Below, piece by piece: positions 7,565 to 21,046 of a DNA stretch of 32,000 bases. Every line of letters begins with the position of its first letter. Within the stretch, counting starts at the first letter, position 1. Source of the DNA: Candidatus Flavonifractor intestinigallinarum. GTDB taxonomy: Bacteria; Bacillota; Clostridia; Oscillospirales; Oscillospiraceae. A program made the position numbers and the translations under genes. Location of the stretch: assembly GCA_019119165.1 (NCBI GenBank), contig DWXO01000087.1, forward strand, positions 8,356-40,355. Reading direction: 5' to 3'. The notes beneath the pieces are model-generated. The model was not told where the DNA came from and did no database searches. It worked only from the letters and a program-made list of their open reading frames with translations.

Positions 7565-7789
7565 TCATGGCTGGTCCTGCCACAGGCGGCGGATCTCCCG
7601 CCCTTCAAGTCCCGTCAGATCGGCGCACTGGGCGGAGCAACCGCATACCACCAGCAGCTGGTCGTAGCAAACTCCGGGGATTGCCCCCTCGAAGGTATCC
7701 TCCTGCCGCTCCCTCCGGATGCGCTCCACCAGGGCCACCCGGTCATACCGGGGATTGCAGCCGCCGCAGTATTTCACTCCGACCCGCAC
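7565..7789 (-). CDS. Small Cys-rich protein (74 aa; CGGC...CGC..C), unknown function
   Basis: GTG start with GGGGAGAG 5 nt upstream. It overlaps the 3' end of the NifU-like gene by 16 nt (translational coupling). Motifs KYCGGCNPRYDR and VVCGCSAQC suggest metal or Fe-S binding. Any CGGC-domain resemblance is recollection only. Confidence 0.55.
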   Translation of the reverse strand: MRVGVKYCGGCNPRYDRVALVERIRRERQEDTFEGAIPGVCYDQLLVVCGCSAQCADLTGLEGREIRRLWQDQP

Positions 7790-8085
7790 GGACGCTCTCC
7801 CCGCAGGATCGCCCGGGCCTGATCCAGCAGTTCCTGGCTCACACCCCCCACCAGCACCACGTCCTTCAGCTCAGGGACAGATTCCAGCAGGGCGGAGCGG
7901 ATCAGGTTTTCCGTGGTCAGCATGGCGGAGGGACACCCGGCGCACTGGCCGGTGAGCTGAAAGCGGTACACCCCGTCCTTGCAGTCCAGGCTGCGGATGT
8001 TGCCGCCGTGAAGGGACAGATTGGGGCGCACCTTCTCCTCCAGAACCCCTTCGATCCGGTCCAGGATCTCACTGTGCTCAGACAC
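7774..8085 (-). CDS. NifU-like (Nfu-type) Fe-S cluster scaffold domain protein
   Basis: GTG start; the AAGGAG RBS lies in the last codons of abfD. The sequence ...VRPNLSLHGGNIRSLDCKDGVYRFQLTGQCAGCPSAMLTTENLIRSALLESVPE... has the Nfu C-terminal CxxC fold pattern. Confidence 0.75.
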   Translation of the reverse strand: MSEHSEILDRIEGVLEEKVRPNLSLHGGNIRSLDCKDGVYRFQLTGQCAGCPSAMLTTENLIRSALLESVPELKDVVLVGGVSQELLDQARAILRGERPCGSE

Positions 8086-8091
8086 CTTTTC

Positions 8092-9543
8092 TCACTCCTT
8101 GACGTGGGCGATCTTCTTGGCCAGTTCCTTCTTCATGGGCAGGTTGCCCTGGCGGGCGATCATGATGCGCTGAGCCTGGGGAGAGCCGGCGCCATGGAGG
8201 GACTCGGTACGGTAGCCCACGGCGGCGGTGCCCAGGGTCAGGTTCTCAATGAGGCGCAGGATGCGGAAGCGGTTCTCTACCGACACGCCGGGGGCGGCCT
8301 TGAAATACTTTTCCACATAGGGCCCCAGCTTGGGGTCCTTCAAATCGGCCTCGGCGGGGGCGGTGACCACCACGCCGCCGGCAATGTCCTCGGCCAGCCG
8401 GGCAATCTCATAGGGGAAGCGGGTGACGTTCTGCTTGCACACGTTGGCCAGCAGCAGGTCGATGATGTAGTTGCCGCTGGCGGTGGCGTGTCCCTCGGCG
8501 GAGCAAGCAATGCCGCAGCAGTACAGAGTCTCGTTCAGGTGGGTCATCTCAATGAGCTTATCCTTGATGTGGGATGCCTTGGCACAGCCGTTGTAGTCGG
8601 CGGCCACGGCGGCGGCGCCGATGAGCACGTCGCCCACGCCCACCTTGCACCCGCCGTAGCTCTGGCGGTGATAGCCGGCAAACCGCTCCACCAGCATCCC
8701 GGCGAATTCGGTCTCACCGCACATGAAGATGCGGTCGTTGGGCACAAACACGTCGTCAAAGACTACCAGGGCCTCCACGCCGCCAAACTCGGCATTGCCC
8801 ACGTCCAGCTCGCTGCCCTCCAGCTTCCGGGTGTCGCAGCTCTGGCGGCCGATGATCATGAAGATGCCCTCGGCGTCCATGGGTACGGCAAAGGACACAG
8901 CGTAGTCCTTGTCCTCCGGCCCCATGGAGATGGTGGGCATAATGATGATCTCATGGCTGTTCAGCGCGCCGGTCTGGTGGGCCTTGGCGCCCCGGACCAC
9001 AATGCCATCTGGGCGGCGCTCCACCACACGCAGGAACAGATCGGGATCCTCCTGCTCATGAGGAGCCTTGGACCGGTCACCCTTGGGGTCGGTCATGGCA
9101 CCGTCCACCGTCAGGTCGTGCTCCTGGACATAGGCGGCAAACTTCTTGAAATTCTCATGATAGCTGGTACCATACTTCTGGTCAATCTCGTAGGTGGTGG
9201 AATAGACGGCGTTGAAGGCGTCCATACCCACGCACCGCTGGAAGCAGGCGGCGGTCTGCTGACCCAGCAGCCGCTGCATCTTTACCTTCTTCACCAGGTC
9301 CTGGGCAGACTGGTGAATGTGGGTGAAGCGGTTGACCTGCTGGCCGGTCAGGTTGGAGGTGGCGGTCATCAGGTCCTGGTACTCCGGCTTCTGGGCCAGG
9401 TCATAGGTCATGCGCACGCTGTTCAGCGAGGGGCGGAGGATGGGATCGTCCACCGGATTCTCCACCTTCTTGCCAAACATATAGACCTGCATCTTCATAT
9501 TGCGGATGCTCTCAATGTACTGTTCCCCTGTCATCAGTGCCAT
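8092..9543 (-). CDS. abfD: 4-hydroxybutyryl-CoA dehydratase / vinylacetyl-CoA delta-isomerase
   Basis: Collinear along its full length with Clostridium aminobutyricum AbfD as I recall it. Shared blocks include KVKMQRLLGQQTAACFQRCVGMDAFNAV, DGAMTDPKGDRS, FAGYHRQSYGGCKVGVGDV, MTHLNETLYCCGIACSAEG, LLANVCKQNVTRFPYEI and GYRTESLHGAGSPQAQRIMIARQGN. Confidence 0.9.
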   Translation of the reverse strand: MALMTGEQYIESIRNMKMQVYMFGKKVENPVDDPILRPSLNSVRMTYDLAQKPEYQDLMTATSNLTGQQVNRFTHIHQSAQDLVKKVKMQRLLGQQTAACFQRCVGMDAFNAVYSTTYEIDQKYGTSYHENFKKFAAYVQEHDLTVDGAMTDPKGDRSKAPHEQEDPDLFLRVVERRPDGIVVRGAKAHQTGALNSHEIIIMPTISMGPEDKDYAVSFAVPMDAEGIFMIIGRQSCDTRKLEGSELDVGNAEFGGVEALVVFDDVFVPNDRIFMCGETEFAGMLVERFAGYHRQSYGGCKVGVGDVLIGAAAVAADYNGCAKASHIKDKLIEMTHLNETLYCCGIACSAEGHATASGNYIIDLLLANVCKQNVTRFPYEIARLAEDIAGGVVVTAPAEADLKDPKLGPYVEKYFKAAPGVSVENRFRILRLIENLTLGTAAVGYRTESLHGAGSPQAQRIMIARQGNLPMKKELAKKIAHVKE

Positions 9544-9562
9544 GTTGTTCCCTTCCTTTCTC

Positions 9563-10408
9563 TTACTTCAGGCTGAGGATCTCCCGGGCCTCGTCGGGGG
9601 TGGCAACCTTCTTGCCGAACTCCTCGATGACCCGGCGGGCCCGATCCACGAACTGGACGTTGCTCTCAGCCAGCACGCCCTTGGTGTACATCACGTTGTC
9701 CTCCATGCCCACACGGATGTGGCCGCCCAGGGCCACAGCGCCGTACAGCATGGTGAGGGCGGAGTGGCCCACGCCGAAGCAGCTCCAGGTGGAGCCGGGG
9801 CACAGGGACTCCATGGTCTCCTTCATAAAGATCAGGTTCTTCATGGTGCCCGGGATACCGTTGGCGCAGCCCATGCAGAACTGGAAGTGCAGCGGAGCCT
9901 TCAGCACGCCCTTTTTGAGGTAATACTGGGCATTGGCGATCATACCAGGATCAAAGGCCTCGATCTCCGGCTTGATGTGGTTGTCCTCCATGATCTTGCC
10001 CAGCTTCTCCAGGAAGGCGGGGGGATTGAGGAACAGGCCGGTGTGCATCCAGTTCATGGAACCGCAGTCATAGGAGGCCATCTCGGGACGCAGCTCCACA
10101 ATGTGCTCATAGCGGCACTCCTCGTTGGGGAAGGAGGCGGCGCCAGAGGTGGTCATATTCAGAATGATATCGCAGTCGGGATGGTTGCCCCGCAGCAGCT
10201 CCACCGTCTGACGGAATTTGTTTTTGTCCATGGCGCCGTTGCCTTCGTCGTCCCGCATATGGATATGGGCGATGGCGGCTCCCGCCTTCCAGCAGGCGTA
10301 GATGTCCTCCGCAATCTCCGCGGGGGTCATGGGCACGTTGGGGTTGTTCTCTTTCTTGGGCCACGCGCCGGTGGTGGCCACGGTAATAATGGTCTTGTCC
10401 TGGCTCAT
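9563..10408 (-). CDS. BKACE family enzyme (beta-keto acid cleavage enzyme, DUF849 / 3-keto-5-aminohexanoate cleavage enzyme-like)
   Basis: Typical BKACE features: N-terminus IITVATTG...PMTPAEIAEDIYACWKAGAAIAHIHMRDDEG, then NMTTSG and GGHIRVGMEDN. I chose the second ATG (10408) because AGGAGG is too close to the ATG at 10414. Confidence 0.85.
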   Translation of the reverse strand: MSQDKTIITVATTGAWPKKENNPNVPMTPAEIAEDIYACWKAGAAIAHIHMRDDEGNGAMDKNKFRQTVELLRGNHPDCDIILNMTTSGAASFPNEECRYEHIVELRPEMASYDCGSMNWMHTGLFLNPPAFLEKLGKIMEDNHIKPEIEAFDPGMIANAQYYLKKGVLKAPLHFQFCMGCANGIPGTMKNLIFMKETMESLCPGSTWSCFGVGHSALTMLYGAVALGGHIRVGMEDNVMYTKGVLAESNVQFVDRARRVIEEFGKKVATPDEAREILSLK

Positions 10409-10476
10409 TTCCATTCCTCCTTAATTCCTGATGTCCGCCCCCTCTGGGCCGGATCTCATAACAGCAAAATTAAAAA

Positions 10477-10492
10477 GCAAAACTCATGCCAA
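10477..10492 (-). promoter_or_regulatory. Sigma-54 (-24/-12) promoter for the BKACE-abfD-nifU-like operon
   Basis: The minus strand reads TTGGCATGAGTTTTGC. GG and GC are 12 nt apart as in the TGGCAC-N5-TTGC consensus. It lies about 70 nt upstream of the start codon. Confidence 0.8.
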
Positions 10493-10529
10493 TTTATTTT
10501 CACCCTTTTGGGCCGCTTTGCGCCGCCGC

Positions 10530-10589
10530 CATTGCATTTTGGAAACAGACCTCGCTTATTTTTCTATTCCCTGTTGCATACCTGCATCA
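10530..10589. promoter_or_regulatory. Pair of enhancer-like dyads (UAS) between divergent sigma-54 promoters
   Basis: CATTGC-ATTTTG-GAAACA (10530-10547) and TGTTGC-ATACCT-GCATCA (10572-10589). Both are variants of TGTTGC-N6-GCAACA, with centres 42 bp apart. Confidence 0.6.
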
Positions 10590-10637
10590 TCCGCCAATTT
10601 AACCGGGCGGTTTTATACAGAAACCAGCCAAGATTGT

Positions 10638-10653
10638 TGGCATCCGGCTTGCA
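10638..10653 (+). promoter_or_regulatory. Sigma-54 (-24/-12) promoter for the thiolase/alcohol dehydrogenase operon
   Basis: TGGCATCCGGCTTGCA, about 50 nt upstream of the ATG at 10704. Confidence 0.8.
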
Positions 10654-10703
10654 TAGTCTCTCTCCAGAATCCACCTCACCACTTTCAGAGAGGAGACATA
10701 CTT

Positions 10704-11882: not shown

Positions 11883-11896
11883 GCTTCGGTACGCCT

Positions 11897-13063
11897 ATGA
11901 AAGACTTTACATTTTCCTTCCCCACCCGGGTCATCTTCGGGCGGGATGCGGAGGGGCGGGCCGGGGAGCTGGCCGCCCCCTTCGGCCCCAATGTCATGGT
12001 TCTCTACGGCAGCGACCGCATCCGCCGCAGCGGCCTGCTGGACCGGCTCACCGCCGATCTGGAGAGCCACGGCCTGACGGTCACTCTGTTCGGAGGTATT
12101 CAGGAAAATCCCCTCCTCTCCAAGGCGGAGGAGGGGCGGCGGCTGGCCCGGGAGAAGAAGATCACCCTCCTGCTGGCCGTGGGCGGCGGCAGCGTCATTG
12201 ACACCGCCAAAGCCGTCAGTCTGGGGGCCAAAAGCACCGCGCCTCTCTGGGACATCTACTCCGGCAAGGGAAAAGCCCAAAAGGCCCTGCCCATCGGGGT
12301 GGTGCTCACCACCGCCGCCACCGCCAGCGAGGCCTACAGCGTATCGGTGCTCTGTCACGATGAGCTCCATTTAAAGGTAGCTCTGGAGGAGCCGCTGACC
12401 CGGCCCCGTTTCGCCCTGATGGACCCGGCCCTCACCTTCTCCCTACCCCCCCGGCAGACCGCCTCCTGCGGGGTGGACATCTTCTCCCACGCCTTTGAGC
12501 GCTACTTCCACAAGGGCCAGCAGGGTACCCTCCGCAGCCAGATGTGCGCCGCCGTGATGCGCACCGTTATCGCCGAACTGCCCAAGGCACTGGCCCATCC
12601 CGACGACTACGACGCCCGCAGTCAGCTCATGTGGGCCGCCACCGTGGCCCACAGCGATATGCTGGGGTTTGAGGGGGATTTCGCCTGTCACGCCATCTCC
12701 CACGTCCTCACCACCGCCCTGGGGCTCCCCCACGGCGTGGCTCTGGGCATTCTCATGACCGCCTGGTGCAAGTATATGCTCACCGATGAGACCCAGGCCA
12801 TTGCCGACTTCTCCACCCTGGTGTGGCAGGTCCCCCCCTGCTCCAGCCAGATCCAGACCGCTCAGAACGGCATCTCCGCCTTCCAGGAGTTTCTCTGCTC
12901 GGCGGGCCTGCCCGTTACCCTGCGGGAGGCCGGTTTCGGCAATGTCTCTCTGGAGGAGCTGGCCGGGCTGGCCCTCCCAGGCGGGGCCGGCACTCTGGGG
13001 GGGAATTTCCGCCCCCTGGATTACAGCGCGGTGCTGAGCTTGTTGCAGCTGGCCCGGGGTTAA
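11897..13063 (+). CDS. Iron-containing (group III) alcohol dehydrogenase, butanol dehydrogenase/YqhD-like
   Basis: F.FPTRVIFG start, the GGGSVIDTAKAV nucleotide loop, and His-rich metal site region (HAISHVL, PHGVALGI). Lies 14 nt after the thiolase gene. Confidence 0.85.
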   Translation: MKDFTFSFPTRVIFGRDAEGRAGELAAPFGPNVMVLYGSDRIRRSGLLDRLTADLESHGLTVTLFGGIQENPLLSKAEEGRRLAREKKITLLLAVGGGSVIDTAKAVSLGAKSTAPLWDIYSGKGKAQKALPIGVVLTTAATASEAYSVSVLCHDELHLKVALEEPLTRPRFALMDPALTFSLPPRQTASCGVDIFSHAFERYFHKGQQGTLRSQMCAAVMRTVIAELPKALAHPDDYDARSQLMWAATVAHSDMLGFEGDFACHAISHVLTTALGLPHGVALGILMTAWCKYMLTDETQAIADFSTLVWQVPPCSSQIQTAQNGISAFQEFLCSAGLPVTLREAGFGNVSLEELAGLALPGGAGTLGGNFRPLDYSAVLSLLQLARG

Positions 13064-13065
13064 GC

Positions 13066-13103
13066 TGTTGCAATTCGGAAATACCCATTGCCGCTGTGCA
13101 ACA
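13066..13103. promoter_or_regulatory. Pair of enhancer-like dyads upstream of the MFS gene
   Basis: TGTTGC-AATTCG-GAAATA (13066-13083) and CATTGC-CGCTGT-GCAACA (13086-13103). Centres 20 bp apart, about 70 bp upstream of the -24 element. Confidence 0.55.
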
Positions 13104-13163
13104 GGTAAGTACCTTTCCTCCCGCTCAGCGGGCAATTTTAACCCCATTTCCCTGTTTTTGTGT

Positions 13164-13179
13164 TGGCATCAGGATTGCT
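13164..13179 (+). promoter_or_regulatory. Sigma-54 (-24/-12) promoter for the MFS transporter
   Basis: TGGCATCAGGATTGCT. Confidence 0.8.
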
Positions 13180-13299
13180 TTTATTCTGTTTCGCTAAATC
13201 AAGTGCGGAGAGAGGAGGCACGTCTTGCAGCCGGAGCAAACCCGGCACAGCGCAGCCAACATCCACATCCTACAGCGCAAATGAGGAGTGAGTAAAACT

Positions 13300-14598
13300 A
13301 TGAGTAAAAAGAACCCCCAGATCGCCAGTGAAAACATGAAGATGAATTTCTCCAAAGGTTGGGGCATCATTCTCTACCAGGCTCTGATGTTCTTCTTCCT
13401 GATCGGTTTCTCCATCGACGGTCTGAACATCGTGGCTCCGGCCTTCTCCGAGGCCACCGGCGTAGACTACCCCAGCGTACTGAGTATGGCTACCGTGGCC
13501 GGCATGATCGGCGTGGTGGTTTACATCTTCATTGCCCGTATCAACGTGAAGGTGGGCGCCCGGCTGCTGTCCGGTGTGTGCCTCATCGGCGCCGGCGCCT
13601 CCTACATCTTCCTGGGCAACAGCAAGACTCTGGTGACCTACTGCATCGCCCTGACTCTGGTCACCTGCTTCATCAACGGCGCCGCCTATATCGCCGGCAA
13701 CACCCTGATCGCCCAGTGGTTCCCCAAGAAGAAGGGCCTGGCCAACGGCTTCACCACCATGGGCCACAACTGCGGCTCCGCCTTCTATGTGCCTCTGATC
13801 TCCTTCGCCATCGGCACCTTCGGCTTTGCCAGCGGCATGAGCTATGTGGCCATCGGCGCCATCGTGCTGGGCATCATCGGCCTACTTTTCGTCCGCAACA
13901 CCCCCCAGGAGTGCGGAATGTACCCCGACAACGTTACCAAGGAAGTGTATGAGCGGGAGTATTTCCAGGGCAACAGCGAGGACAACGGCGGCTGGACCGC
14001 GGGCAAGCTGCTCAAGACCCGTGAGCTGTGGCTGTGCGCCCTCATCATCGGCATCAACCAGCTGGTCACCACCGGCGTCATGAGCCAGCTGGTGGTCCGC
14101 AACACCAGCCTGGGCTTCTCCCAGGAGTCTGCCGTGGGCCTGATGACCGTGTGCGCCATCATCGGTGTGTGCGGCTCCTACCTCTTCGGCGCCATTGACC
14201 AGAAGTTCGGCGTCAAGAAGGCCATCATTCTCTTCCTCATCTGGTACTGCATCGCTCTGGCCGTCAACTGCACCGACACCACCATCGGCGTGTATGTGTC
14301 CGTGGCCATGATCGGCATCGCCGTGGGCGCCGCCGCCAACTTTATCGTGTCCCTGCCCGCTTCCGTGTTCGGCCGTCACGGCTTCACCATGGTGAACTCC
14401 GTGTTCTTCCCCCTGATGCAGATCGTGCTGATGACCAACTACCTGGTCAACGCCTTCGCGCTGAAGATCACCGGCAGCCTGCGGGGCGCCTACATCTTCT
14501 ACATCGGCCTGCTGGTGGTCAACATAATCCTCACCGCCGTGATCAACCCCACCAAGTACAACAAGGACGTGGCTACCGAGCAGGAGCTGCTGAAGTAA
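13300..14598 (+). CDS. MFS transporter (12-TM, oxalate/formate-antiporter-like subfamily guess)
   Basis: ATG at 13300 lies 12 nt after AGGAG; the GTG at 13288 abuts the RBS. The protein is hydrophobic throughout with two six-helix halves separated by a charged loop (PDNVTKEVYEREYFQGNSEDNGG). Confidence 0.85.
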   Translation: MSKKNPQIASENMKMNFSKGWGIILYQALMFFFLIGFSIDGLNIVAPAFSEATGVDYPSVLSMATVAGMIGVVVYIFIARINVKVGARLLSGVCLIGAGASYIFLGNSKTLVTYCIALTLVTCFINGAAYIAGNTLIAQWFPKKKGLANGFTTMGHNCGSAFYVPLISFAIGTFGFASGMSYVAIGAIVLGIIGLLFVRNTPQECGMYPDNVTKEVYEREYFQGNSEDNGGWTAGKLLKTRELWLCALIIGINQLVTTGVMSQLVVRNTSLGFSQESAVGLMTVCAIIGVCGSYLFGAIDQKFGVKKAIILFLIWYCIALAVNCTDTTIGVYVSVAMIGIAVGAAANFIVSLPASVFGRHGFTMVNSVFFPLMQIVLMTNYLVNAFALKITGSLRGAYIFYIGLLVVNIILTAVINPTKYNKDVATEQELLK

Positions 14599-14688: not shown

Positions 14689-16260
14689 TCAGCTTCTGCG
14701 GTTTTCATAGTCGATCTCGTACTGTTTGATCTTGCGGCAGATGGTGGAGGCGTTGATATTCAGCTTGCGGCTGGCGTCCCGCAGGTTAGAGGAGCCTTTC
14801 AGCACTTGCTCCAGGAGGCGCTTTTCAAAGTCCGCCACCGCTGTATTGAAGTCCACACCCTCGGCGGGCAGCTCAGGGGCGGGCTCCGGCCGGGGCGGCT
14901 CCGCCTTGGGAGCGGCGGGCTGGGGCTCGGGGATCTCCTCCGGCACGTTCAGCAGGCCGCGGAGCACGTCGTCCTCAATCCGGCCAATGCCGGAGCTGCA
15001 CAGGATCAGATACTCCATCACGTTTTCCAGTTCCCGGATGTTGCCCGGCCAGGAATAGCGCTTCATATAGTCGATCTGCCACTGAGTCAGGCTGAAGGTG
15101 CGGTCGTACTTCTTGGTAAAGCGGTCAATGAAGTACTCACACAGGTCCTCAAAGTCCTCGGTGCGCTGCCGCAGGGCGGGCACCGCAATGGGGATCACAT
15201 TGAGCCGGTAGTAGAGGTCCTGCCGGAAGGTGCCCTCCGACACCTTTTTCTTCAAATCCGCGTTGGTCAGGGCCAGAAAACGGATGTCCAGCTTGATGGG
15301 CCGGGTGCCGCCGATGCGGGTAATCTCCTGGGACTGGATGGCCCGCAGCAGCTTCACCTGCAGATCCATGGGCATATCCCCGATCTCATCCAGCATCAGG
15401 GTGCCGTGGTTGGCGTACTCAAAGAGGCCCACCTTGCCCTTGGCGTTGGCGCCGGTAAAGGCCCCCTTCTCATAGCCGAACAGCTCGGACTCCAGCAGGT
15501 GGCCCGGGATGGAGGCGCAGTTGATCTTCACATAGGGCTTGTCCCGGCGCAGACTGCGGCGGTAGATCTCGTCGGCCACCACCTCCTTGCCCACTCCCGA
15601 CTCGCCGGTGATGAGCACCGAGGCGTCGGTGGGCGCGATCCGGTCCAGCAGGGTATCGATCTGTTTCAGAGAGCCGTATTTTCCCACCATGCTGCCCGAC
15701 AGATGCTTGTCCGAATCCTTGCTGATGGTTCTGGGATGGATGGCGTTGACCTCCTTGACAAAGGCCTCGAAATCCTCCTGCAGGGAACTGAGGCTCATAA
15801 TGGGCCGGCTACAGGCCACCACCTGCCGCAGGCTGCCGTCCGGCTTGAAGATGGGGGTTCCCATCACATAGCCCACCAGGGGCTCCCCAGTTTTATAGGT
15901 GGTGGACAGGCGGAAGGCGCTCTTTTTGTTCTCCAGCACACTGGTCACCGCCCCGCCGGTAAAAAGCTTGTCCTCCCCGATCAGGGTGTGGATATCCCGG
16001 TTCAGGACCTCCTCCTCGGTGATCCCCGTATTGCGGGTATAGGCAGGATTGACATAGAGGACGGTCCCATCGGCATCCGTGATCATGATGCTGTCGTCCA
16101 GCCCGTCCACTACCTCTTTAAAGTCAATGCCCCGGTCATGGAAGGCCTGCAGGCGGTGATCGATCTCCTCCAGCTTGGCCACCAGCTCCGGGCGGTCACT
16201 CTCATCCATCACAAGCCGCAGCAGCTTTCTTACTTCTCTTATGGCGGAATATTGGTTCAT
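14689..16260 (-). CDS. Sigma-54-dependent transcriptional activator (PAS sensor - AAA+ - Fis-type HTH)
   Basis: Start at 16260 (GAGGAGGAG RBS). Domains in order: PAS-like (IMITDADGTVLYVNPAYTRNTGI), Walker A GESGVGKE, the sigma-54 contact loop GAFTGA, Walker B LDEIGDM, a Pro-rich linker, and C-terminal HTH (LRDASRKLNINASTICRKIKQYEI). Confidence 0.9.
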   Translation of the reverse strand: MNQYSAIREVRKLLRLVMDESDRPELVAKLEEIDHRLQAFHDRGIDFKEVVDGLDDSIMITDADGTVLYVNPAYTRNTGITEEEVLNRDIHTLIGEDKLFTGGAVTSVLENKKSAFRLSTTYKTGEPLVGYVMGTPIFKPDGSLRQVVACSRPIMSLSSLQEDFEAFVKEVNAIHPRTISKDSDKHLSGSMVGKYGSLKQIDTLLDRIAPTDASVLITGESGVGKEVVADEIYRRSLRRDKPYVKINCASIPGHLLESELFGYEKGAFTGANAKGKVGLFEYANHGTLMLDEIGDMPMDLQVKLLRAIQSQEITRIGGTRPIKLDIRFLALTNADLKKKVSEGTFRQDLYYRLNVIPIAVPALRQRTEDFEDLCEYFIDRFTKKYDRTFSLTQWQIDYMKRYSWPGNIRELENVMEYLILCSSGIGRIEDDVLRGLLNVPEEIPEPQPAAPKAEPPRPEPAPELPAEGVDFNTAVADFEKRLLEQVLKGSSNLRDASRKLNINASTICRKIKQYEIDYENRRS

Positions 16261-16321
16261 CGCGCTCCTCCTCACCGTTTCTGTCGGGCATTGTACCGGC
16301 ACGCAAGTGCCGCAAAGGGAT

Positions 16322-17188
16322 TTAAAAGGTCAGCTCCTTGATCTGGGCAATGCCCTCCCGCTGGACGCCCCTGGCATAGGGATACTCCGGATAGCCGAAC
16401 CCCAGAATCAAGCTGTAATACCGGTCTTTAGGAATTTGCAGCAGCTGTTCCACCTCCGGCATATGGGACAGAGCCCCCACCGGGTAGGACATAATGATGG
16501 ACCCCAGCCCGTGGGAGGCGCAGATCAGGTCAAACCAGGCCGCGGCCAGCACCGGGTCGGTCTGCCACTGACCTCTGCCCCGCTGGGAGTGGATCACCAG
16601 AATGTGGGGCGCGTTGACGAAGAACATATCGCCCGGGTTGCGGCCAGGCTCCCACTCCAGCTGCTTCTCCCAATCGCTTTTGGTGAAGGAACCGGGGTAG
16701 ATCCCCTGCTCCGCCAGCCGGAAGGCCTCCTCCCGCACCAGCTTGCGCAGCTTGTCCATCTCCGCCTTCCGGTACACCACGTTGAAGCCCAGAGTCTGCA
16801 AGTTGCTGCCGGTAGGCACGTTCTCCAGCAGCCGGAGCATCTGGTCGATCTCCTCCCGGGGCACCTCCCGGTCCTGATAGCGGCGGCAGGCCCGCCGGTT
16901 GCGCATCAGGGCCTCCAGCTGGCGGGCGTTGGCCCCCTCCTCGGGCAGCAGGGAGTCCTTGGGGTCCTTGTCAAAGATGGAAATGGCGCCGGTGGGGCAC
17001 ACCGCCAGACAGTGCTGGCAGCGATAGCAGCCGTCCCAGCCTGCCACGCCGTCGGCCTCCTCCTTCATTCTGGGGACTCCCTGCCCGTCAAAGTACAGGA
17101 TCACCGAAGAACAGGATGCAACGCACCTGCCGCAGTGGATACATTGATCCGGGTTTGCCTTGAAATGAAAGCTCTTCACCAGCTCCAC
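16322..17188 (-). CDS. 4Fe-4S dicluster ferredoxin domain fused to a nitroreductase-family flavoprotein
   Basis: N-terminal CIHCGRCVASC and CYRCQHCLAVCP motifs. The rest is nitroreductase-like (RRACRRYQDREVP...NVPTGSNLQ...). GTG start at 17188 or GTG at 17179; the exact start is uncertain. Confidence 0.8.
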   Translation of the reverse strand: MELVKSFHFKANPDQCIHCGRCVASCSSVILYFDGQGVPRMKEEADGVAGWDGCYRCQHCLAVCPTGAISIFDKDPKDSLLPEEGANARQLEALMRNRRACRRYQDREVPREEIDQMLRLLENVPTGSNLQTLGFNVVYRKAEMDKLRKLVREEAFRLAEQGIYPGSFTKSDWEKQLEWEPGRNPGDMFFVNAPHILVIHSQRGRGQWQTDPVLAAAWFDLICASHGLGSIIMSYPVGALSHMPEVEQLLQIPKDRYYSLILGFGYPEYPYARGVQREGIAQIKELTF

Positions 17189-17277
17189 GCTCCTTGTCGC
17201 TCCATTTGAGTAATCTCTATTATAGCCTGCTTGTCAACTCGATGTCTAATGGGCGCAGGCCTAACAAAAGGAATTAA

Positions 17278-17293
17278 GCAAATTGGATGCCAG
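17278..17293 (-). promoter_or_regulatory. Sigma-54 (-24/-12) promoter for the ferredoxin-nitroreductase gene (and probably the activator)
   Basis: The minus strand reads CTGGCATCCAATTTGC, about 90 nt upstream of the start. Confidence 0.8.
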
Positions 17294-17331
17294 CTTTATC
17301 CATATGATGCCGGCCCAATGTTGCCCTCGCC

Positions 17332-17392
17332 CATTGCATTTTTGCAACTTGTTGCCGATTCGCCTTCTGGGCGCTGTTGCTATTCCGCAACA
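17332..17392. promoter_or_regulatory. Pair of enhancer-like dyads between divergent sigma-54 promoters
   Basis: CATTGC-ATTTTT-GCAACT (17332-17349) and the perfect TGTTGC-TATTCC-GCAACA (17375-17392), centres 43 bp apart. Extra TGTTGC half-sites at 17319 and 17350. The layout matches 10530-10589. Confidence 0.65.
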
Positions 17393-17438
17393 TTCCCCGA
17401 TCATCCGGGAAAACAGGGCTGTTTTCCCCTGAAATTTT

Positions 17439-17454
17439 TGGCATGGGATTTGCA
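17439..17454 (+). promoter_or_regulatory. Sigma-54 (-24/-12) promoter for the 3-hydroxyacyl dehydrogenase gene
   Basis: TGGCATGGGATTTGCA. Confidence 0.8.
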
Positions 17455-17528
17455 TTATTCACAGGCAAGCACAATGTTGTCCGCGACAACCCAGCTGACA
17501 AAGATCAAAAAGAAATGAGGAATCAACC

Positions 17529-18434
17529 ATGGGCAAGATCAAAGCAGTGTTTGTTGGCACCGGCATGATCGGAGCCGGCCTGGCTGCCAACGCCATGCTG
17601 AACGGCTACGAGACCGTCCTCTACGATGTGGTCCCCCAGGAGAAGATGCGGGAGAACATCAGCCACATTCTGGACATTCTGGTGGAGGCGGGGGCCGCCA
17701 CCAGGGCCCAGGCCGACCAGGCTCTGGCCGACTGCCAGTTCTCCAACAACCTGGAGGAGGCGGTCAAGGGGGCTCACTTCGTGCAGGAGTGCATCCCCGA
17801 GCGGCTGGAGCTGAAAAAATCCACCTATGCCGCCATCCAGAAGGTGACCGGCCCCGACGCCGTCATTTGCAGCTCCACCTCCAAGCTCTTCCCCACCAAG
17901 CTGCAGGAGGACGCCCTCTATCCCCAGTCCATCCTGGTGGGCCACCCCTACAATCCCTCCTATCTGCTCCCCCTCATTGAACTGTGCGGCGGCGAGCAGA
18001 CCTCCCCGGAGGCCATCCAGCAGGCCAAGGAGATCTACACCGGCATGGGCAAGGTGGCGGTGGTCTGCAAGAAGGAGATCTACGGCTTCATCGTCAACCG
18101 CCTGTCCTGGGCCGCGCTGGAGGCCGCCAAAGAGTGCGTGCGCGACGGCGTCTGCTCCGTGGAGGATATGGACAAGGCCATCATGTTCGGCCCCGGTATG
18201 CGTATGGCGGTGACCGGCCAGCTGCTCACCATCAGCCTGGGTGTGGACGGCGGTTTCCGGGCCATCGCCGAGAAATACGGCGAGGAGCCCACCCCCTGGA
18301 ATGAGGTGTACGCCCAGGGCGTGGACGAGGAGATCGCCAACCGGGACCCCGCCATGGGCAACACGGTGGACGGCGTGTGCAAGTTCCGGGATCACGCCTT
18401 TGCGGAGCTGCTGAAGCTGCACAAGCTGCTCTGA
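17529..18434 (+). CDS. 3-hydroxyacyl-CoA dehydrogenase family protein (carnitine/gulonate 3-dehydrogenase-like; may act on a free beta-hydroxy acid)
   Basis: Rossmann loop VGTGMIGAGLA, ECIPERLELKK, GHPYNPSYLLPLIEL, and C-terminal dimerisation domain. GAGGAA RBS. Confidence 0.8.
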   Translation: MGKIKAVFVGTGMIGAGLAANAMLNGYETVLYDVVPQEKMRENISHILDILVEAGAATRAQADQALADCQFSNNLEEAVKGAHFVQECIPERLELKKSTYAAIQKVTGPDAVICSSTSKLFPTKLQEDALYPQSILVGHPYNPSYLLPLIELCGGEQTSPEAIQQAKEIYTGMGKVAVVCKKEIYGFIVNRLSWAALEAAKECVRDGVCSVEDMDKAIMFGPGMRMAVTGQLLTISLGVDGGFRAIAEKYGEEPTPWNEVYAQGVDEEIANRDPAMGNTVDGVCKFRDHAFAELLKLHKLL

Positions 18435-18454
18435 TCCCGCCCCAATCCGCCGGT

Positions 18455-18502
18455 TGTTTCATTTTTGCAACAGAGCATCTTGCTTGTGTCAGTTGCGCAA
18501 CA
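18455..18502. promoter_or_regulatory. Pair of enhancer-like dyads upstream of the DUF362 operon
   Basis: TGTTTC-ATTTTT-GCAACA (18455-18472) and TGTGTC-AGTTGC-GCAACA (18485-18502), centres 30 bp apart. Confidence 0.6.
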
Positions 18503-18552
18503 AAATTCCTCCGTTATTTTCCAAAAATCAGGCCGTTTACCCCAAAAATACT

Positions 18553-18568
18553 TGGCATTTGATTTGCA
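18553..18568 (+). promoter_or_regulatory. Sigma-54 (-24/-12) promoter for the DUF362/small protein/cyclase operon
   Basis: TGGCATTTGATTTGCA. Confidence 0.8.
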
Positions 18569-18620
18569 GTTATCATGAGTGTAATGAATGACACACCAAA
18601 TTCTGAAGGGAGAACTGAGT

Positions 18621-19907
18621 ATGTCTGACAAAAAAGCGCTGGTCGCTCTGGCCAAGGAGGCCAGCATCCAGGAGAGCGTCACCAAGGTCTTTGACCTGAT
18701 GGGCGGCGTCACCAACATGATCAAGCCCGGCACCACCGTAATGCTCAAGCCCAACGCCGGTCACGCCTCCCCCGCCGACACCTCCGTGTGTACCAACCCC
18801 GAGGTGGTTCGTGCCGTCATCCGTGAGGTCAAGAAGGCCAATCCCAAGAGCATCGTTATCGCTGAGGCCGCCGCCATCGGCTGCGATACCATGGAGTGCT
18901 ATGAGGTTTCCGGCATCGCCGACGTAGCCCGGGAGGAGGGCGTGGAGCTCTACGACATCAAGGCCGACAAGGACCTGATCAATGTAGCCGTCCGGGGCTA
19001 CCGCTCCAATCTGCACCACGTCAAGCTGCCCCGCCGTCTGCTGGAGGCCGACCACCTGATCAACCTGCCCATCCTGAAGGCCCACGCCAGCATGGTGTTC
19101 TCCTGCGCCCTGAAGAACATCAAGGGCGTGGTGCAGGACGCCGTCCACCTGCAGATGCACCAGCAGAATCTGACCATGGCCATGATGGACGTGTGGAGCG
19201 TCTGCCGGGCCGACATCAACATCGTGGACGCCATCCGTCCCGCCAGCGGCTACTCCCCCCACACCCCGGTGCCCATCGAGGTGGGCTGCATTCTGGGTTC
19301 CACCGACCCCGTGGCCGTGGACCTGATCGCCTGCGACCTGGTGGGCATCGACGCCGAGGCGGTGGACTACTTCCGGGTGGCCGCCGAGACCGGCCTGGGC
19401 ATCACCGAGCGGGAGGACATCGACGTGGTGGGCGCCTCCGTCAAGGACTGCTACAAGAAGATGTGGGTCCCCTACATTGGCGACATGAGCACCCGCTGGC
19501 CTGAGTACAAGGTGCTGTGCGACGGCGCCTGCTCCAGCTGCCAGGCCCTGCTGGCCATCAACATGGAGACGCTGAAGGCCATTGGCGACTACGAGCGCCG
19601 TTCCGATTTCGTGGTAGTGGCCGGCGGCAAGAACCAGATCCCCGCCGACGTGGACGACAAGAAGCTGGTGCTCCACGGCAACTGCACCCGCAAGTACCTG
19701 AAGGATCACCCCGACGCCATCCACATCGAGGGCTGCCCCCCCTCCGAGCCGCTGCTCTATATGTCCATCAGCAACGGCGAGCTGGTCCACGGCAAGGGCG
19801 GCCAGATGAGCGAGTACATCCGTCCCCGCATGGCCGCCGACCAGCCGGTGTGGCGCAAGTATGTGGAGGAGCAGGCCAAGAAGTTCTACGGCAGTCAGGA
19901 AGGTTGA
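18621..19907 (+). CDS. DUF362-like protein with a C-terminal Cys cluster (uncharacterised, possibly Fe-S/metal binding)
   Basis: Start at 18621 (GAAGGGAGA RBS). The track start 18588 would be almost leaderless relative to the sigma-54 promoter. The N-terminal pattern (VMLKPNAG...TNPEVVRAVIREV...IVIAEA) matches my memory of DUF362. C-terminal CDGACSSCQALL...HGNCTRKY...EGCPPSE. Confidence 0.6.
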   Translation: MSDKKALVALAKEASIQESVTKVFDLMGGVTNMIKPGTTVMLKPNAGHASPADTSVCTNPEVVRAVIREVKKANPKSIVIAEAAAIGCDTMECYEVSGIADVAREEGVELYDIKADKDLINVAVRGYRSNLHHVKLPRRLLEADHLINLPILKAHASMVFSCALKNIKGVVQDAVHLQMHQQNLTMAMMDVWSVCRADINIVDAIRPASGYSPHTPVPIEVGCILGSTDPVAVDLIACDLVGIDAEAVDYFRVAAETGLGITEREDIDVVGASVKDCYKKMWVPYIGDMSTRWPEYKVLCDGACSSCQALLAINMETLKAIGDYERRSDFVVVAGGKNQIPADVDDKKLVLHGNCTRKYLKDHPDAIHIEGCPPSEPLLYMSISNGELVHGKGGQMSEYIRPRMAADQPVWRKYVEEQAKKFYGSQEG

Positions 19908-19909
19908 CC

Positions 19910-20182
19910 ATGGCGTTTCAATATGTGGACTATCCCCAGGAGATGAAGGATCTGCTCAGCCGCATTTTCAGCGACGCTTTTATGCAGACCCATACCCGCT
20001 TCCAGTCCTTTGAGGGCTTCCGCTACTCCAGCGCGGTGTTCGTCAACTGGAATTCCGACCAGCTCATCTATAATGAGGCTCTGCTGGACCGCTTCGTCCA
20101 GGAAAGCACCCAGTTCTCCTCCTGGGAGGAGATGGTGCGTACCGCCGCCGACCAGTGCTTTCAGCCCGCCGTTTGTTCCTGA
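19910..20182 (+). CDS. Hypothetical 90-aa protein
   Basis: The ATG lies 2 nt after the DUF362 stop, with CAGGAAGG upstream. Codon usage is like its neighbours. It sits inside a longer track ORF (19517-20182) whose upstream part is an alternate frame of the DUF362 gene. No family recognised. Confidence 0.55.
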   Translation: MAFQYVDYPQEMKDLLSRIFSDAFMQTHTRFQSFEGFRYSSAVFVNWNSDQLIYNEALLDRFVQESTQFSSWEEMVRTAADQCFQPAVCS

Positions 20183-20227
20183 ATCCAGAGAATATCCATC
20201 CATTCTAAACGAAAAGGAGTTATCACT

Positions 20228-21046
20228 ATGAGCAAGACCGTTCTTGTAGACCTGTCTCACCCCTTCGGCCGGGGCAATCCCCTGTGGCCCTCCAACGGCG
20301 ATTTCCATATCGACCGCGTGCAGCATATGCCCATGCACTACCGTCTGCTGCAGACCTTTAACGACTTCCATATGCACAACTCCACCCACGCCGACTCCCC
20401 CTCCCACGTGATCCCCGAGGGCGCCTTCACCCATGAGCTGCCCCTGGAAAATTACTACGGCCCCGCCGTCTGCCTGGACATCCCCAAGAAGCACTGGGAG
20501 CTCATCACCGTGGAGGACATCGAAAAGGCCGCCGCCAAGGTGGAGGGCGGCATCCAGGAGGGCGACTGGGTGCTCATCTGCACCGGCATGAACAAGCGCT
20601 GGGGCGAGAATGACGACTACTTCATGTACTCCCCCGGTATGTCCATCGAGGGCGCCCACTGGCTGGTGGATCACAAGGTCAAGGGCGTGGGCTTCGACCT
20701 GCAGGCTCTGGACCACATCCTGTACACCTACGCCGCCCAGCACGGCCCCGGGCCCTACGTCCCCCGCATCGTGGACGAGTACAAGAAGGAGTTCGGCCAT
20801 GAGCCCCTGGAGGACTTCCCCGAGTGGGAGCCCGTCCACACCATCCTGCTGAGCAACAACGTCATGGGCATCGAGAACCTGGGCGGCGACATCGAGAAGG
20901 TCAAGGGTCAGCGCTTCACCTTCTGCGCCTTCCCCCTGCGCTGGTACATGGGCGACGGCACCATCGTCCGGGCCGTGGCCATGATCGACGAGGACAAGAT
21001 CAACAAGGACGTGCCCGACCGCGTCTACAAGTACGGCGTGTATTGA
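20228..21046 (+). CDS. Cyclase-family metal-dependent hydrolase (kynurenine formamidase / isatin hydrolase / dihydrophloroglucinol cyclohydrolase superfamily)
   Basis: Carries the diagnostic H-x-x-x-T-H-x-D-x-P-x-H motif as HMHNSTHADSPSH, in a ~270-aa protein. AAGGAG RBS. Confidence 0.8.
   Translation: MSKTVLVDLSHPFGRGNPLWPSNGDFHIDRVQHMPMHYRLLQTFNDFHMHNSTHADSPSHVIPEGAFTHELPLENYYGPAVCLDIPKKHWELITVEDIEKAAAKVEGGIQEGDWVLICTGMNKRWGENDDYFMYSPGMSIEGAHWLVDHKVKGVGFDLQALDHILYTYAAQHGPGPYVPRIVDEYKKEFGHEPLEDFPEWEPVHTILLSNNVMGIENLGGDIEKVKGQRFTFCAFPLRWYMGDGTIVRAVAMIDEDKINKDVPDRVYKYGVY

Follow-up and report, generated by a model that had tools for sequence, protein, structure and literature searches.

Does a gene island in a Flavonifractor genome encode a phloroglucinol-type ring-cleavage pathway that lacks the usual reductase, and which protein might take the place of that enzyme? 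The island covers positions 7565–21083 of the window, the whole 32-kb stretch of DNA that was analysed. It comprises genes for AbfD/NifU, a BKACE, a thiolase, an Fe-ADH, an MFS protein, a sigma54 activator, a ferredoxin-nitroreductase, a 3-hydroxyacid dehydrogenase (3HCDH), a DUF362 protein with a 90-aa partner and a cyclase (Table 1). Every gene listed in the earlier note was recovered at or near its reported position, and its view that the island fits the core chemistry of the Clostridium scatologenes phloroglucinol pathway (PMC10470551), with the SDR reductase missing, was supported. Searching the window by tblastn with three PGR-type SDRs gave a best E value of 0.09 over 54 aa; together with Pfam analysis of the flanking ORFs, it detected neither an SDR nor a cupin in any reading frame of the 32-kb stretch. 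Near-identical contigs, which cover the right flank and the island interior, revealed no adjacent PGR outside the window.

Promoters and gene content of the island

Table 1. Features of the island with positions in the window, strand and supporting evidence.
Feature	Position	Strand	Evidence
74-aa Cys-rich protein (CGGC...CGC)	7565..7789	-	downstream of AbfD/NifU
NifU-like Fe-S scaffold domain protein, 103 aa	7774..8085	-	Pfam PF01106, 67 bits
AbfD, 4-hydroxybutyryl-CoA dehydratase / vinylacetyl-CoA isomerase	8092..9543	-	HpaB_N + HpaB
BKACE, triacetate acetoacetate-lyase (TAL) type	9563..10414	-	PF05853, 350 bits
Sigma54 -24/-12 promoter, BKACE-AbfD-NifU operon	10476..10491	-	exact TGGCATGAGTTTTGCT
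Sigma54 promoter, thiolase-FeADH operon	10638..10653	+	
Acetyl-CoA C-acetyltransferase (thiolase), 392 aa	10704..11882	+	Thiolase_N/C; TIGR01930, 479 bits (above cut-off, 240.55)
Fe-dependent alcohol/aldehyde dehydrogenase, YqhD/butanol-DH-like	11897..13063	+	PF00465/PF25137
Sigma54 promoter, MFS gene	13164..13179	+	exact match
MFS importer	13288..14598	+	homology
Sigma54-dependent activator (PAS sensor, AAA+, Fis-type HTH)	14689..16302	-	PF00158, 224 bits; PAS; HTH_8
Nitroreductase-family flavoprotein with a fused 2x[4Fe-4S] ferredoxin domain, accessory gene	16322..17188	-	
Sigma54 promoter, ferredoxin-nitroreductase (possibly activator too)	17277..17292	-	exact match
Sigma54 promoter, 3HCDH	17439..17454	+	
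L-3-hydroxyacid dehydrogenase, lambda-crystallin/carnitine-DH type	17529..18434	+	3HCDH_N/3HCDH
Sigma54 promoter, DUF362-partner-cyclase	18553..18568	+	exact match
DUF362 protein, candidate hydride-transfer enzyme	18621..19907	+	PF04015, 165 bits
90-aa DUF362 partner, orphan family	19910..20182	+	adjacent to DUF362 in 79/80 loci
Cyclase-family metal hydrolase, DPGC-like	20228..21046	+	PF04199, 125 bits

Six sigma54 promoters matching TGGCAY-N5-TTGCW exactly are located in the intergenic regions of the island, all in the correct orientation, compared with 0.08 expected (0 of 100 shuffles). Since the same gene set was also found again in many genomes, this grouping is not due to chance. Judged from the promoter sequences, all units of the island are one sigma54-controlled regulon, to which AbfD/NifU and the ferredoxin-nitroreductase belong. 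The promoter regions of thiolase-FeADH and 3HCDH have the box CCATTGCATTTT in common, at 10529–10540 (108 bp upstream of the former promoter) and 17331–17342 (107 bp upstream of the latter). A 95-aa ORF at 17231–17518 was rejected as a gene and is considered spurious because it has no homolog, is not called in L001–L007 and overlies two of the sigma54 promoters.

AbfD matches the C. aminobutyricum enzyme (1U8V) with 820 bits and about 75% identity over the full length. The NifU-like gene always follows AbfD, with adjacency in L008, L013-like loci, L019, L021 and L022/L096. The counterpart of the 74-aa Cys-rich protein in L008 is annotated as PF27236 AF_0334, and a homolog accompanies AbfD-NifU in L019 and L094. 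AbfD is genuine, co-regulated and recurrent, and cleavage products may possibly feed 4-hydroxybutyryl-CoA, as the earlier note proposed. The phloroglucinol-type scheme proposed below leaves it unaccounted for, which counts against that scheme.

Enzymes related to the phloroglucinol pathway

The cyclase contains the motif HMHNSTHADSPSH quoted earlier. It is 53–58% identical to the cyclases of cupin-SDR-3HCDH-cyclase-BKACE (PGR) clusters of Brevibacillus and Rubrivivax and 40% identical to the long canonical DPGC type. Its signature is LWPS together with NGDFHIDRVQHMPMHYRLLQTFN, whereas the canonical type has LWPY; this exchange of Tyr22 for Ser is strictly conserved and suggests that the substrate may differ from dihydrophloroglucinol. 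Going by its signature, the cyclase is a member of a distinct LWPS subfamily. In L001–L003/L018 a DAPG/phloretin-hydrolase gene adjoins the cyclase and an enoate-reductase module lies nearby; the module is also present in L096. These neighbours connect the island type with flavonoids.

The BKACE carries the Trp (TTGAWP) regarded as the TAL signature (PMC10470551), is 57% identical to the TAL-type BKACEs of canonical clusters (L009/L014) and scores under every NCBIfam equivalog cut-off. Most related clusters possess a BKACE of the Val-Thr-Thr type and not of the TAL Trp type. Identity with lysine Kce was rejected, as the score was 298 bits versus an equivalog cut-off of 382 and Trp replaces the amino-group-binding Glu. 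With this Trp in the BKACE, and with the cyclase close to those of PGR clusters, the island enzymes fall outside lysine Kce and kynurenine formamidase, the two other affiliations that had been envisaged. The thiolase is 75% identical to that of L013, and the MFS protein shows 61% identity to the L013 MFS and 35% to the MFS beside a canonical phloroglucinol cluster (L009).

The 3-hydroxy-acid dehydrogenase had been taken for the pathway enzyme. It is not a TfD ortholog (29–30% identity to TfD-type proteins), and its best PDB matches are lambda-crystallin (3F3S/3ADO). It is a lambda-crystallin/carnitine-DH-like protein that is predicted to act on free 3-hydroxy acids. The best NCBIfam match of the Fe-ADH, PRK15138, remained under the cut-off (215 bits). 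One of two non-orthologous kinds of Fe-ADH occurs in 41 of 80 related loci, and none is in view in the other 39.

The DUF362 protein and its partner

A non-SDR, ferredoxin-linked ring reductase had been suggested in the earlier note. The lack of an SDR agrees with this, but the ferredoxin-nitroreductase is strain-variable, being present in L004–L007 and absent from L001–L003 and all 80 scan loci, and the DUF362 protein with its 90-aa partner is the likelier candidate. Overall, the earlier interpretation was thus partly supported: pathway kinship and the missing SDR stood, the reductase and dehydrogenase assignments did not.

To our knowledge, a function has not been assigned to any DUF362 protein. 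The true start of the DUF362 ORF is an internal Met; its homologs in 80 species have 427–428 aa, and identities are 65–97%. The C-terminal Cys residues are conserved. The partner family has 133 representatives, all small and stand-alone, and no Pfam match. The scan set consisted of 80 species-level loci from gut Clostridia; E. ramulus, F. plautii and Catenibacillus scindens are among the carriers. Across this set the pair, nearly always adjacent, co-occurs with thiolase (60), MFS (54), the activator encoded inside the island (42), LWPS cyclase (42), Fe-ADH (41), BKACE (39) and TfD (36), while a PGR-like SDR lies beside DUF362 in a single locus (L068). The association of the pair with cyclase, TfD, BKACE and thiolase takes several gene orders and extends to single operons such as that of L096. 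An acetoacetate-CoA ligase gene in L096 supports acetoacetate as a product, and this ligase or CtfAB is present in sister clusters. In type-2 clusters, for instance F. plautii L035, the order is DUF362-partner-3HCDH-CtfAB-thiolase-BKACE and a cyclase is missing. C. catus-type clusters contain DUF362, partner, BKACE and CoA-transferase and no NAD-dependent dehydrogenase (SDR, Fe-ADH and 3HCDH all absent), which favours a redox role for DUF362.

For the AF2 model of the DUF362 protein (pLDDT 89), the top 18 Foldseek PDB matches were all LarA-type nickel-pincer enzymes, with TM-scores of just 0.35–0.40. DUF362 and LarA_N belong to one Pfam clan, CL0471 (PMC11770544); sequence similarity between PF04015 and LarA was not detectable, and no alignment of the LarA cofactor-binding residues onto DUF362 was obtained. 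LarB, LarC1, LarC2 and LarE, the proteins that make the nickel-pincer cofactor, scored above NCBIfam equivalog cut-offs beside DUF362 in L030, L076, L097, L013 and L096, and the gene calls of L013, L076, L096 and L097 included no DUF2088 (LarA). A Lar gene (LarB/C/E) lies beside DUF362 in 31 of the 80 loci, and related loci with larB, larC1/C2 and larE also have a Ni-type transporter or repressor nearby. The Flavonifractor loci had no Lar gene within 10 kb, and the window had none either. As the modelled fold and the Lar genes in relatives suggest, the DUF362 protein is a candidate LarA-like hydride-transfer enzyme, probably with a nickel-pincer cofactor, and the pair is likely the replacement of the missing SDR reductase.

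Proposed pathway, alternatives and known systems

We see an even chance that the island encodes an anaerobic ring-cleavage pathway of the phloroglucinol type in a variant not described so far, organized as one sigma54 regulon, with LarA-like DUF362 hydride transfer and a TAL-type lower half, and conserved across many gut Clostridia. The PAS-domain activator would turn on the six promoters, and the MFS protein, related to that of the canonical cluster, would import flavonoid-derived phloroglucinol or a close analogue. The LarA-fold DUF362 protein and its partner, and not an SDR PGR, would then carry out the hydride transfer by which the ring becomes open to hydrolysis, probably with a tightly bound nickel-pincer nucleotide and perhaps assisted by Fe-ADH. 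The fold, the LarB/LarC/LarE linkage in relatives and the occurrence of DUF362 in place of cupin and SDR point to this step. By homology to DPGC, the LWPS cyclase may hydrolyse the cyclic 1,3-dione in a retro-Claisen reaction and so open the ring. The resulting 3-hydroxy acid could be converted to the beta-keto acid by 3HCDH, or by cofactor-bound DUF362 returning or borrowing the hydride. The TAL-type BKACE is expected from homology to form acetoacetate and acyl-CoA with acetyl-CoA, and the thiolase to cleave acetoacetyl-CoA. The low TM-scores, the unaligned cofactor-binding residues, the lack of Lar genes near the Flavonifractor loci, the SDR of L068 and the cyclase-free type-2 clusters tell against this reading.

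A search for PGR elsewhere had also been advised; none is present at the island, but F. plautii and other Flavonifractor genomes have canonical PGR-TfD-DPGC-TAL clusters at other sites, and E. ramulus, Emergencia and Brotonthovivens also carry canonical PGR clusters. The island is therefore a parallel pathway and not the genome's sole phloroglucinol route. Such a PGR could act in trans, and the coexistence also argues for a different substrate.

It is possible, if rather unlikely, that the pair acts after ring opening as a LarA-like racemase, epimerase or keto-shift isomerase, interconverting (R)- and (S)-3-hydroxy-5-oxohexanoate or converting 3-hydroxy-5-oxo- to 5-hydroxy-3-oxohexanoate, while ring reduction would fall to Fe-ADH or to the canonical PGR that the same genomes encode elsewhere. 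Characterised LarA relatives are all 2-hydroxyacid racemases or epimerases and none is a reductase (PMC11770544), although the DUF362 family is distinct from LarA and its conserved Cys is not known to be needed by LarA. Fe-ADH often adjoins DUF362, yet its slot is filled by two non-orthologous kinds or empty in view. The cyclase-free type-2 clusters put DUF362 beside hydroxy-acid steps, and the Val-Thr-Thr BKACE is compatible with a 5-hydroxy-3-oxo acid; against this, C. catus-type clusters keep DUF362 and BKACE without any reductase.

We consider it improbable that the substrate is a ring other than free phloroglucinol whose products include a 4-hydroxyacyl-CoA handled by AbfD. Candidates include C-alkylated phloroglucinols, for example the catechin-derived 1-(3,4-dihydroxyphenyl)-3-(2,4,6-trihydroxyphenyl)propan-2-ol, for which A-ring fission would lead to 4-hydroxy-5-arylvaleryl-CoA or valerolactone. 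On paper, reduction, hydrolysis, oxidation, BKACE and thiolase acting on this diarylpropanol give acetoacetate, acetyl-CoA and 4-hydroxy-5-arylvaleryl-CoA, and F. plautii is a known A-ring-fission organism with enzymes still unassigned (PMC13515148). The strictly conserved change in the cyclase pocket, the coexisting canonical cluster and a co-regulated AbfD repeatedly beside BKACE fit this proposal. However, a bulky 5-aryl substrate is unlikely for an AbfD so similar to the 4-hydroxybutyryl-CoA enzyme, the cluster occurs in many taxa without known valerolactone formation, and phloretin hydrolase, adjoining in some loci, yields plain phloroglucinol. Hydroxyhydroquinone or a pyrogallol-type ring are further candidates, but on paper a 1,2,4-oxygenated ring cannot give 6-hydroxy-3-oxohexanoate by retro-Claisen chemistry.

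That the island is a redundant copy of the known lower half with PGR in trans, and DUF362, partner, Fe-ADH, AbfD and nitroreductase mere neighbours, is very improbable: canonical PGR clusters elsewhere in Flavonifractor and a compact cyclase-TfD-BKACE paralog cluster without DUF362 in F. plautii favour it, but the sigma54 promoters are common to all island units and the pair keeps company with the pathway genes across 80 species.

Read as a phloroglucinol-type variant, the island shares with the C. scatologenes pathway (PGR, DPGC, TfD, TAL; Zhou et al., 2023, PMC10470551) a C-C hydrolase of the cyclase family, a 3-hydroxyacid dehydrogenase of the 3HCDH family, a TAL-Trp BKACE, thiolase, MFS transporter and regulator, as well as the phloretin-hydrolase link in some genomes and flavonoid-degrading gut Clostridia as hosts. 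It differs by the lack of SDR PGR and cupin, the LWPS cyclase and a 3HCDH that is not a TfD ortholog, and adds DUF362 with its partner, Fe-ADH, AbfD/NifU and sigma54 control, with LarB/C/E in relatives. A published survey contains such clusters as partial matches only (F. plautii YL31 cluster 188 in Data S2; PMC10470551). With the LarA superfamily (DUF2088), DUF362 shares clan, predicted fold (LarA-type matches only) and larB/larC1/C2/larE adjacency in relatives, whereas it represents another Pfam family, has conserved cysteines near its C terminus and an obligatory 90-aa partner, and stands in a BKACE/ring-cleavage context instead of 2-hydroxyacid racemisation. Lysine Kce has the BKACE fold and is the best NCBIfam and PDB (2Y7D, 208 bits) sequence match of the island BKACE, but the island contains neither lysine aminomutases nor Kdd. 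A genuine AbfD with NifU-like helper and an Fe-ADH recall the 4-aminobutyrate/succinate-to-butyrate route (AbfD, AbfT, 4-hydroxybutyrate dehydrogenase); in contrast to that route, the island has no 4-hydroxybutyrate CoA-transferase, its Fe-ADH is nearer the YqhD type and its AbfD is co-transcribed with BKACE under sigma54 control. The aldolase-dependent pathway of Collinsella also varies the phloroglucinol route and shares its upper steps: there PGR and DPGC are kept and the lower half is changed, whereas the island changes the upper half and keeps the lower half.

Gene content and predicted sigma54 control of the island

The gene map was based on Pfam and NCBIfam scans of the open reading frames of both strands, with small ORFs read individually, and bears out the gene inventory of the earlier note. 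No SDR and no cupin was detected in any frame of the window or among the Pfam-scanned ORFs, in agreement with its statement that an SDR-type reductase is missing here. A canonical SDR phloroglucinol reductase (PGR) just outside the window had been a concern, and in near-identical contigs none adjoins the island, at least on its right flank. The ferredoxin-nitroreductase was set aside as ring reductase or electron donor, since it is absent from most related loci. A 95-aa ORF (17231-17518), considered as a second small partner, was dropped as spurious.

Genes and predicted sigma54 promoters of the island (window positions)
Feature	Position	Strand	Remark
74-aa Cys-rich ORF	7565-7789	-	
NifU-like protein	7774-8085	-	
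AbfD	8092-9543	-	
BKACE	9563-10414	-	
sigma54 promoter	10476	-	serves BKACE-AbfD-NifU
sigma54 promoter	10638	+	serves thiolase-FeADH
thiolase	10704-11882	+	
Fe-ADH	11897-13063	+	
sigma54 promoter	13164	+	serves MFS
MFS transporter	13288-14598	+	
PAS-AAA-HTH sigma54 activator	14689-16302	-	PF00158, 224 bits
2x[4Fe-4S]-nitroreductase	16322-17188	-	
sigma54 promoter	17277	-	serves nitroreductase
sigma54 promoter	17439	+	serves 3HCDH
3HCDH	17529-18434	+	
sigma54 promoter	18553	+	serves DUF362-partner-cyclase
DUF362	18621-19907	+	Pfam: PF04015 only
90-aa ORF (partner)	19910-20182	+	
cyclase	20228-21046	+	PF04199

The motif TGGCAY-N5-TTGCW occurred exactly six times in the 32 kb (0.08 expected; 0 of 100 shuffles), and all six matches are intergenic, lie within the island and point at a transcription unit. 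The island thus combines a bEBP carrying an AAA+ sigma54-interaction domain with a -24/-12 promoter for each unit and is, on these predictions, one regulon. As predicted sigma54 promoters precede every unit, AbfD and the nitroreductase would be co-regulated with the ring-cleavage genes. An identical box, CCATTGCATTTT, is localized at 10529-10540 and 17331-17342, i.e. in both divergent intergenic regions, approximately 108 bp upstream of the two plus-strand sigma54 promoters and approximately 50 bp upstream of the divergent minus-strand ones; taken alone it has no statistical significance and is a positional observation only. Together with TGTTGC...GCAACA repeats found near it in both regions, the box probably marks activator binding sites.

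At the DNA level the island shares 93-95% identity with a group of contigs, GCA_002161085.1 among them, and 83-84% with F. plautii ATCC 29863; the window thus derives from a Flavonifractor other than F. plautii. The similarity to four related loci (L004-L007) stops at approximately 21083. The flanks are unrelated to the island. Upstream, an ECF sigma-factor domain fused to a C-terminal extension of approximately 400 aa (458-2200) precedes a double zinc-ribbon protein and an ABC-2 exporter. The downstream flank carries an HNH-repeat protein, an Opp-like ABC system and an AstE-like gene; an 819-aa ORF (23825-26284) joins an ABC permease domain (BPD_transp_1) to a family-5 solute-binding domain. 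The HNH-endonuclease-associated repeat protein with its four repeats (21783-22859) and the DUF6809/DUF6550/DUF6076 genes (29096-31994) look like mobile-element content.

The DUF362 cluster family and canonical phloroglucinol clusters

A DUF362 scan of species-representative genomes gave 80 loci with 65-97% identity. All of them belong to Clostridia of the gut or rumen, classic flavonoid degraders among them. Carriers are, among others, F. plautii (two copies), Pseudoflavonifractor, Catenibacillus scindens, Eubacterium ramulus, Emergencia timonensis, Hornefia, Coprococcus catus, Brotonthovivens, Intestinimonas and Dysosmobacter. Components were counted by tblastn, and as many contigs are short the numbers are minimum values: the 90-aa partner was present in at least 79 of the 80 loci, thiolase in 60, MFS in 54, the sigma54 activator and the LWPS cyclase in 42 each, Fe-ADH in 41, BKACE in 39, a TfD-type 3HCDH in 36, LarC in 28, CtfAB in 16, AbfD in 15, LarB in 11 and LarE in six. 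A PGR-like SDR was found in a single locus (L068:11747-12517), directly after DUF362-partner, with 37% identity to Brevibacillus PGR (169 bits). The partner belongs to an orphan family, whose 133 representatives showed no informative fusions.

Contigs with an identical cyclase share a constant core of BKACE / thiolase-FeADH-MFS / activator / 3HCDH-DUF362-partner-cyclase, and AbfD/NifU and the nitroreductase vary among them. Three architectures recur. Type 1 (39 loci) contains the LWPS cyclase. Type 2 (nine loci) has no cyclase and reads MFS-DUF362-partner-3HCDH-MFS-CtfAB-thiolase-two crotonase-fold proteins-BKACE; the crotonase-fold proteins may be beta-diketone hydrolases. Examples, with a LysR / MFS start, are L035:8689-19533 (F. 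plautii ATCC 29863), L036, L045, L050, L055, L075, L083 and L095. Type 3, which is Coprococcus-like, consists of DUF362-partner with CtfAB and BKACE, to which some loci add a 47%-identical cyclase; the C. catus cluster encodes two crotonase-fold proteins besides an MBL-fold hydrolase and lacks any NAD-dependent dehydrogenase. A further arrangement, BKACE-AbfD-NifU-AF_0334-cyclase-DctPQM-cyclase, places two LWPS cyclase copies around a TRAP transporter (L008:2935-10819). In L001-L003 (L001:10894-11751) a gene of the DAPG/phloretin-hydrolase family abuts the cyclase. A set of further genes recurs beside the cluster in two lineages (L001:20739+ and L096:5621-7573): an Fcr-like enoate reductase with OYE + Pyr_redox_2 domains, a 2-hydroxyacid dehydrogenase and a sugar ABC module.

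The breakdown of flavonoids and tannins, in anoxic soils as in the gut, passes through phloroglucinol as the common intermediate, and to our knowledge the SDR-type PGR is the sole reductase type that makes its ring cleavable. The pathway described for C. scatologenes comprises PGR, DPGC, TfD and TAL (mBio 2023, PMC10470551). The cblaster table of that study lists three clusters for F. plautii YL31: a canonical one, PGR-TfD-DPGC-TAL, in which DPGC and CsDPGC share 75% identity, a compact one without PGR, and a third match with TAL (61%), TfD (55%) and, 12 kb away, a 38.7%-identical 819-nt cyclase (PMC10470551). Judged by its layout, the third match is probably the ortholog of the island; loci of the DUF362 type were treated in that survey as partial pathway matches (PMC10470551). 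Canonical clusters were detected in further Flavonifractor species too, and hence the source genome probably encodes a PGR outside the island. A compact paralog cluster of F. plautii (L010:10001-12834, L011, L012) lies beside eutBC with transposases on its flanks; it comprises an LWPS cyclase 95% identical to that of the window, a TfD-like 3HCDH and a Val-Thr-Thr BKACE, and the 1.2-1.6 kb upstream of the cyclase hold no called gene.

A LarA-like fold in DUF362 and a putative hydride-borrowing pathway

The AF2 model of DUF362 (pLDDT 89.2, pTM 0.89) was compared with the PDB using Foldseek. The best 18 matches were all LarA or LarA-homolog nickel-pincer enzymes (probability 1.00, E 1e-7 to 1e-4, TM 0.35-0.40), and unrelated folds appeared only at E > 5e-3. 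The model thus assigns to DUF362 the two-domain fold of LarA. At the sequence level the protein matched PF04015 only and not DUF2088/LarA_N, and neither a single-sequence nor an alignment-profile search of PDB sequences returned LarA; the latter gave no alignment on which the invariant residues K153/H155/K165/K168/H176/H180 could be mapped to the cofactor-tethering Lys and the Ni-binding/catalytic His of LarA. DUF362 and LarA_N are placed in the same Pfam clan, CL0471 (PMC11770544).

At least one lar gene lies within reach of DUF362 in 31 of the 80 loci. In five loci the identification rests on scores above the cut-offs of curated NCBIfam equivalog models: LarC in L013 and L096; LarB and LarC with CbiM/Q/O-like transporter genes in L097; LarB, an RcnR-like repressor and LarC beside DUF362 in L030 (E. 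ramulus); and LarB, an RcnR-like repressor, LarC1, LarE and LarC2, followed by rpoN and AbfD, in L076. DUF2088 was absent from the precomputed Pfam matches of the called genes of L013, L096 and L097 and from the L076 ORFs assigned by tblastn, Pfam or NCBIfam. Neither the window nor the 10 kb around DUF362 in Flavonifractor loci contains a lar gene, and the best 120 matches of a LarB homologue search were mostly from Anaerovoracaceae. As lar genes occur in one or two copies per genome, their enrichment beside DUF362 is very large, and DUF362 is likely a client of the nickel-pincer cofactor machinery. Next to DUF362, an RcnR/CsoR-like metal-responsive repressor gene lies between larB and larC in L030 (11138-11542), L076 (15572-15934) and 10 more loci, which hints that cofactor synthesis is under nickel-responsive control.

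In our proposal the lower half follows the known pathway: a 3-hydroxy acid would be converted to a beta-keto acid and this to acetoacetate and an acyl-CoA, with thiolase as the next step. Acetoacetate as product is supported by the acetoacetate-CoA ligase that L096 encodes (810 bits, cut-off 521) and by CtfAB elsewhere. In the upper pathway DUF362 and its partner, often with Fe-ADH, would replace the canonical cupin and SDR pair. Because a bound pincer cofactor can only shuttle hydride, hydride borrowing is the simplest scheme that would also explain the dehydrogenase-free type 3 clusters: DUF362 would reduce the ring, after which the hydride would return to DUF362 or its complex from the 3-hydroxy acid formed by ring opening. 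In sum, ring + H2O would give a beta-keto acid. We rate the chances of this family of explanations as about even. Only tentatively do we suggest its full form, that DUF362 with its partner is the first nickel-pincer-nucleotide enzyme beyond the LarA racemases, dearomatising a phloroglucinol-type ring and re-oxidising the 3-hydroxy acid without free NAD(P)H, and that the cluster family is the gut route by which polyphenols lose A-ring carbon, which might extend to the conversion of flavan-3-ols to phenylvalerolactones in Flavonifractor.

The main rival, which we consider doubtful, invokes the LarA-like fold for racemase, epimerase or keto-shift chemistry on a ring-opened hydroxy acid. It is unlikely that the substrate differs from phloroglucinol, in which case the island may serve A-ring fission of catechin-derived diarylpropanols in F. 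plautii (PMC13515148); the altered cyclase pocket, the coexistence with canonical clusters and the otherwise unexplained AbfD speak for it. AbfD is unexplained in that paper chemistry from hydroxyhydroquinone, pyrogallol, resorcinol and tetrahydroxybenzene gave no route to 4-hydroxybutyryl-CoA with the enzymes present. Pure redundancy, with neighbours that are unrelated, is very improbable.

The island would be a variant of a phloroglucinol-type pathway in which one component could be categorically new enzymology, the reductase slot being taken by DUF362, a family without known function. If the LarA fold and the Lar linkage do reflect cofactor use, this would be a first function for DUF362, would extend nickel-pincer chemistry past 2-hydroxyacid racemisation and would provide candidate genes for the as yet unassigned A-ring carbon-loss steps of dietary polyphenols (PMC13515148). 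Our literature searches returned nothing on DUF362 function, on any connection of nickel-pincer enzymes with polyphenol catabolism, or on the pairs BKACE and DUF362, nickel-pincer and phloroglucinol, or AbfD and phloroglucinol. Current annotation tools would call these loci incomplete phloroglucinol pathways.

Core enzymes compared with known systems

The identification of AbfD in the earlier note was sound: judged by its approximately 75% identity to 1U8V, the protein is a genuine AbfD. Compared with the AbfD 4-hydroxybutyrate route, the Pfam-scanned ORFs of the window include no CoA-transferase, and Fe-ADH scores higher on a YqhD-like model (215 bits) than on the 4-HB-DH model (109 bits). 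The proposed match to the phloroglucinol core held in part. It failed for the 3HCDH, which shares only 29-30% identity with TfD-type proteins, resembles lambda-crystallin and carnitine dehydrogenase and is not a TfD ortholog, although TfD-type genes occur in 36 of the 80 sister loci. It stood for the TAL-type BKACE; the cyclase is a PF04199 relative.

For the BKACE frame (9563-10408), a comparison with TAL, Kce and the dehydrocarnitine cleavage enzyme had been suggested, and the protein proved TAL-like. It is 57% identical to the BKACEs of canonical clusters (L009, L014) and, as in TAL of the canonical pathway, has Trp (in TTGAWP) at the position of Glu14 of Kce, a replacement that discriminates TAL from Kce (PMC10470551). 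All NCBIfam equivalogs scored below cut-off (Kce 298 bits, cut-off 382; 3,5-dioxohexanoate model 212, cut-off 430). A lysine Kce was rejected on this score, the Trp and the absence of aminomutase and Kdd from the Pfam-scanned ORFs of the window; carnitine dehydrogenase/dehydrocarnitine cleavage and 3-oxoadipate enzymes were likewise below the cut-offs, and Trp signature and neighbours favour TAL.

The cyclase is 95% identical to one F. plautii protein, 53-58% identical to the short cyclases of cupin-SDR-3HCDH-cyclase-BKACE clusters of Brevibacillus and Rubrivivax, and 40% identical to the long canonical type. CsDPGC contacts its substrate through Trp20/Tyr22 (PMC10470551), and every PGR-linked cyclase examined has the matching signature LWPY; in the DUF362-linked cyclases of type 1 the signature is LWPS without exception, and a nearly invariant NGDFHIDRVQHMPMHYRLLQTFN comes next. 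Compared with CsDPGC, the window cyclase thus keeps the PF04199 domain and Trp20, but carries Ser in place of Tyr22 and differs in the segment that follows.
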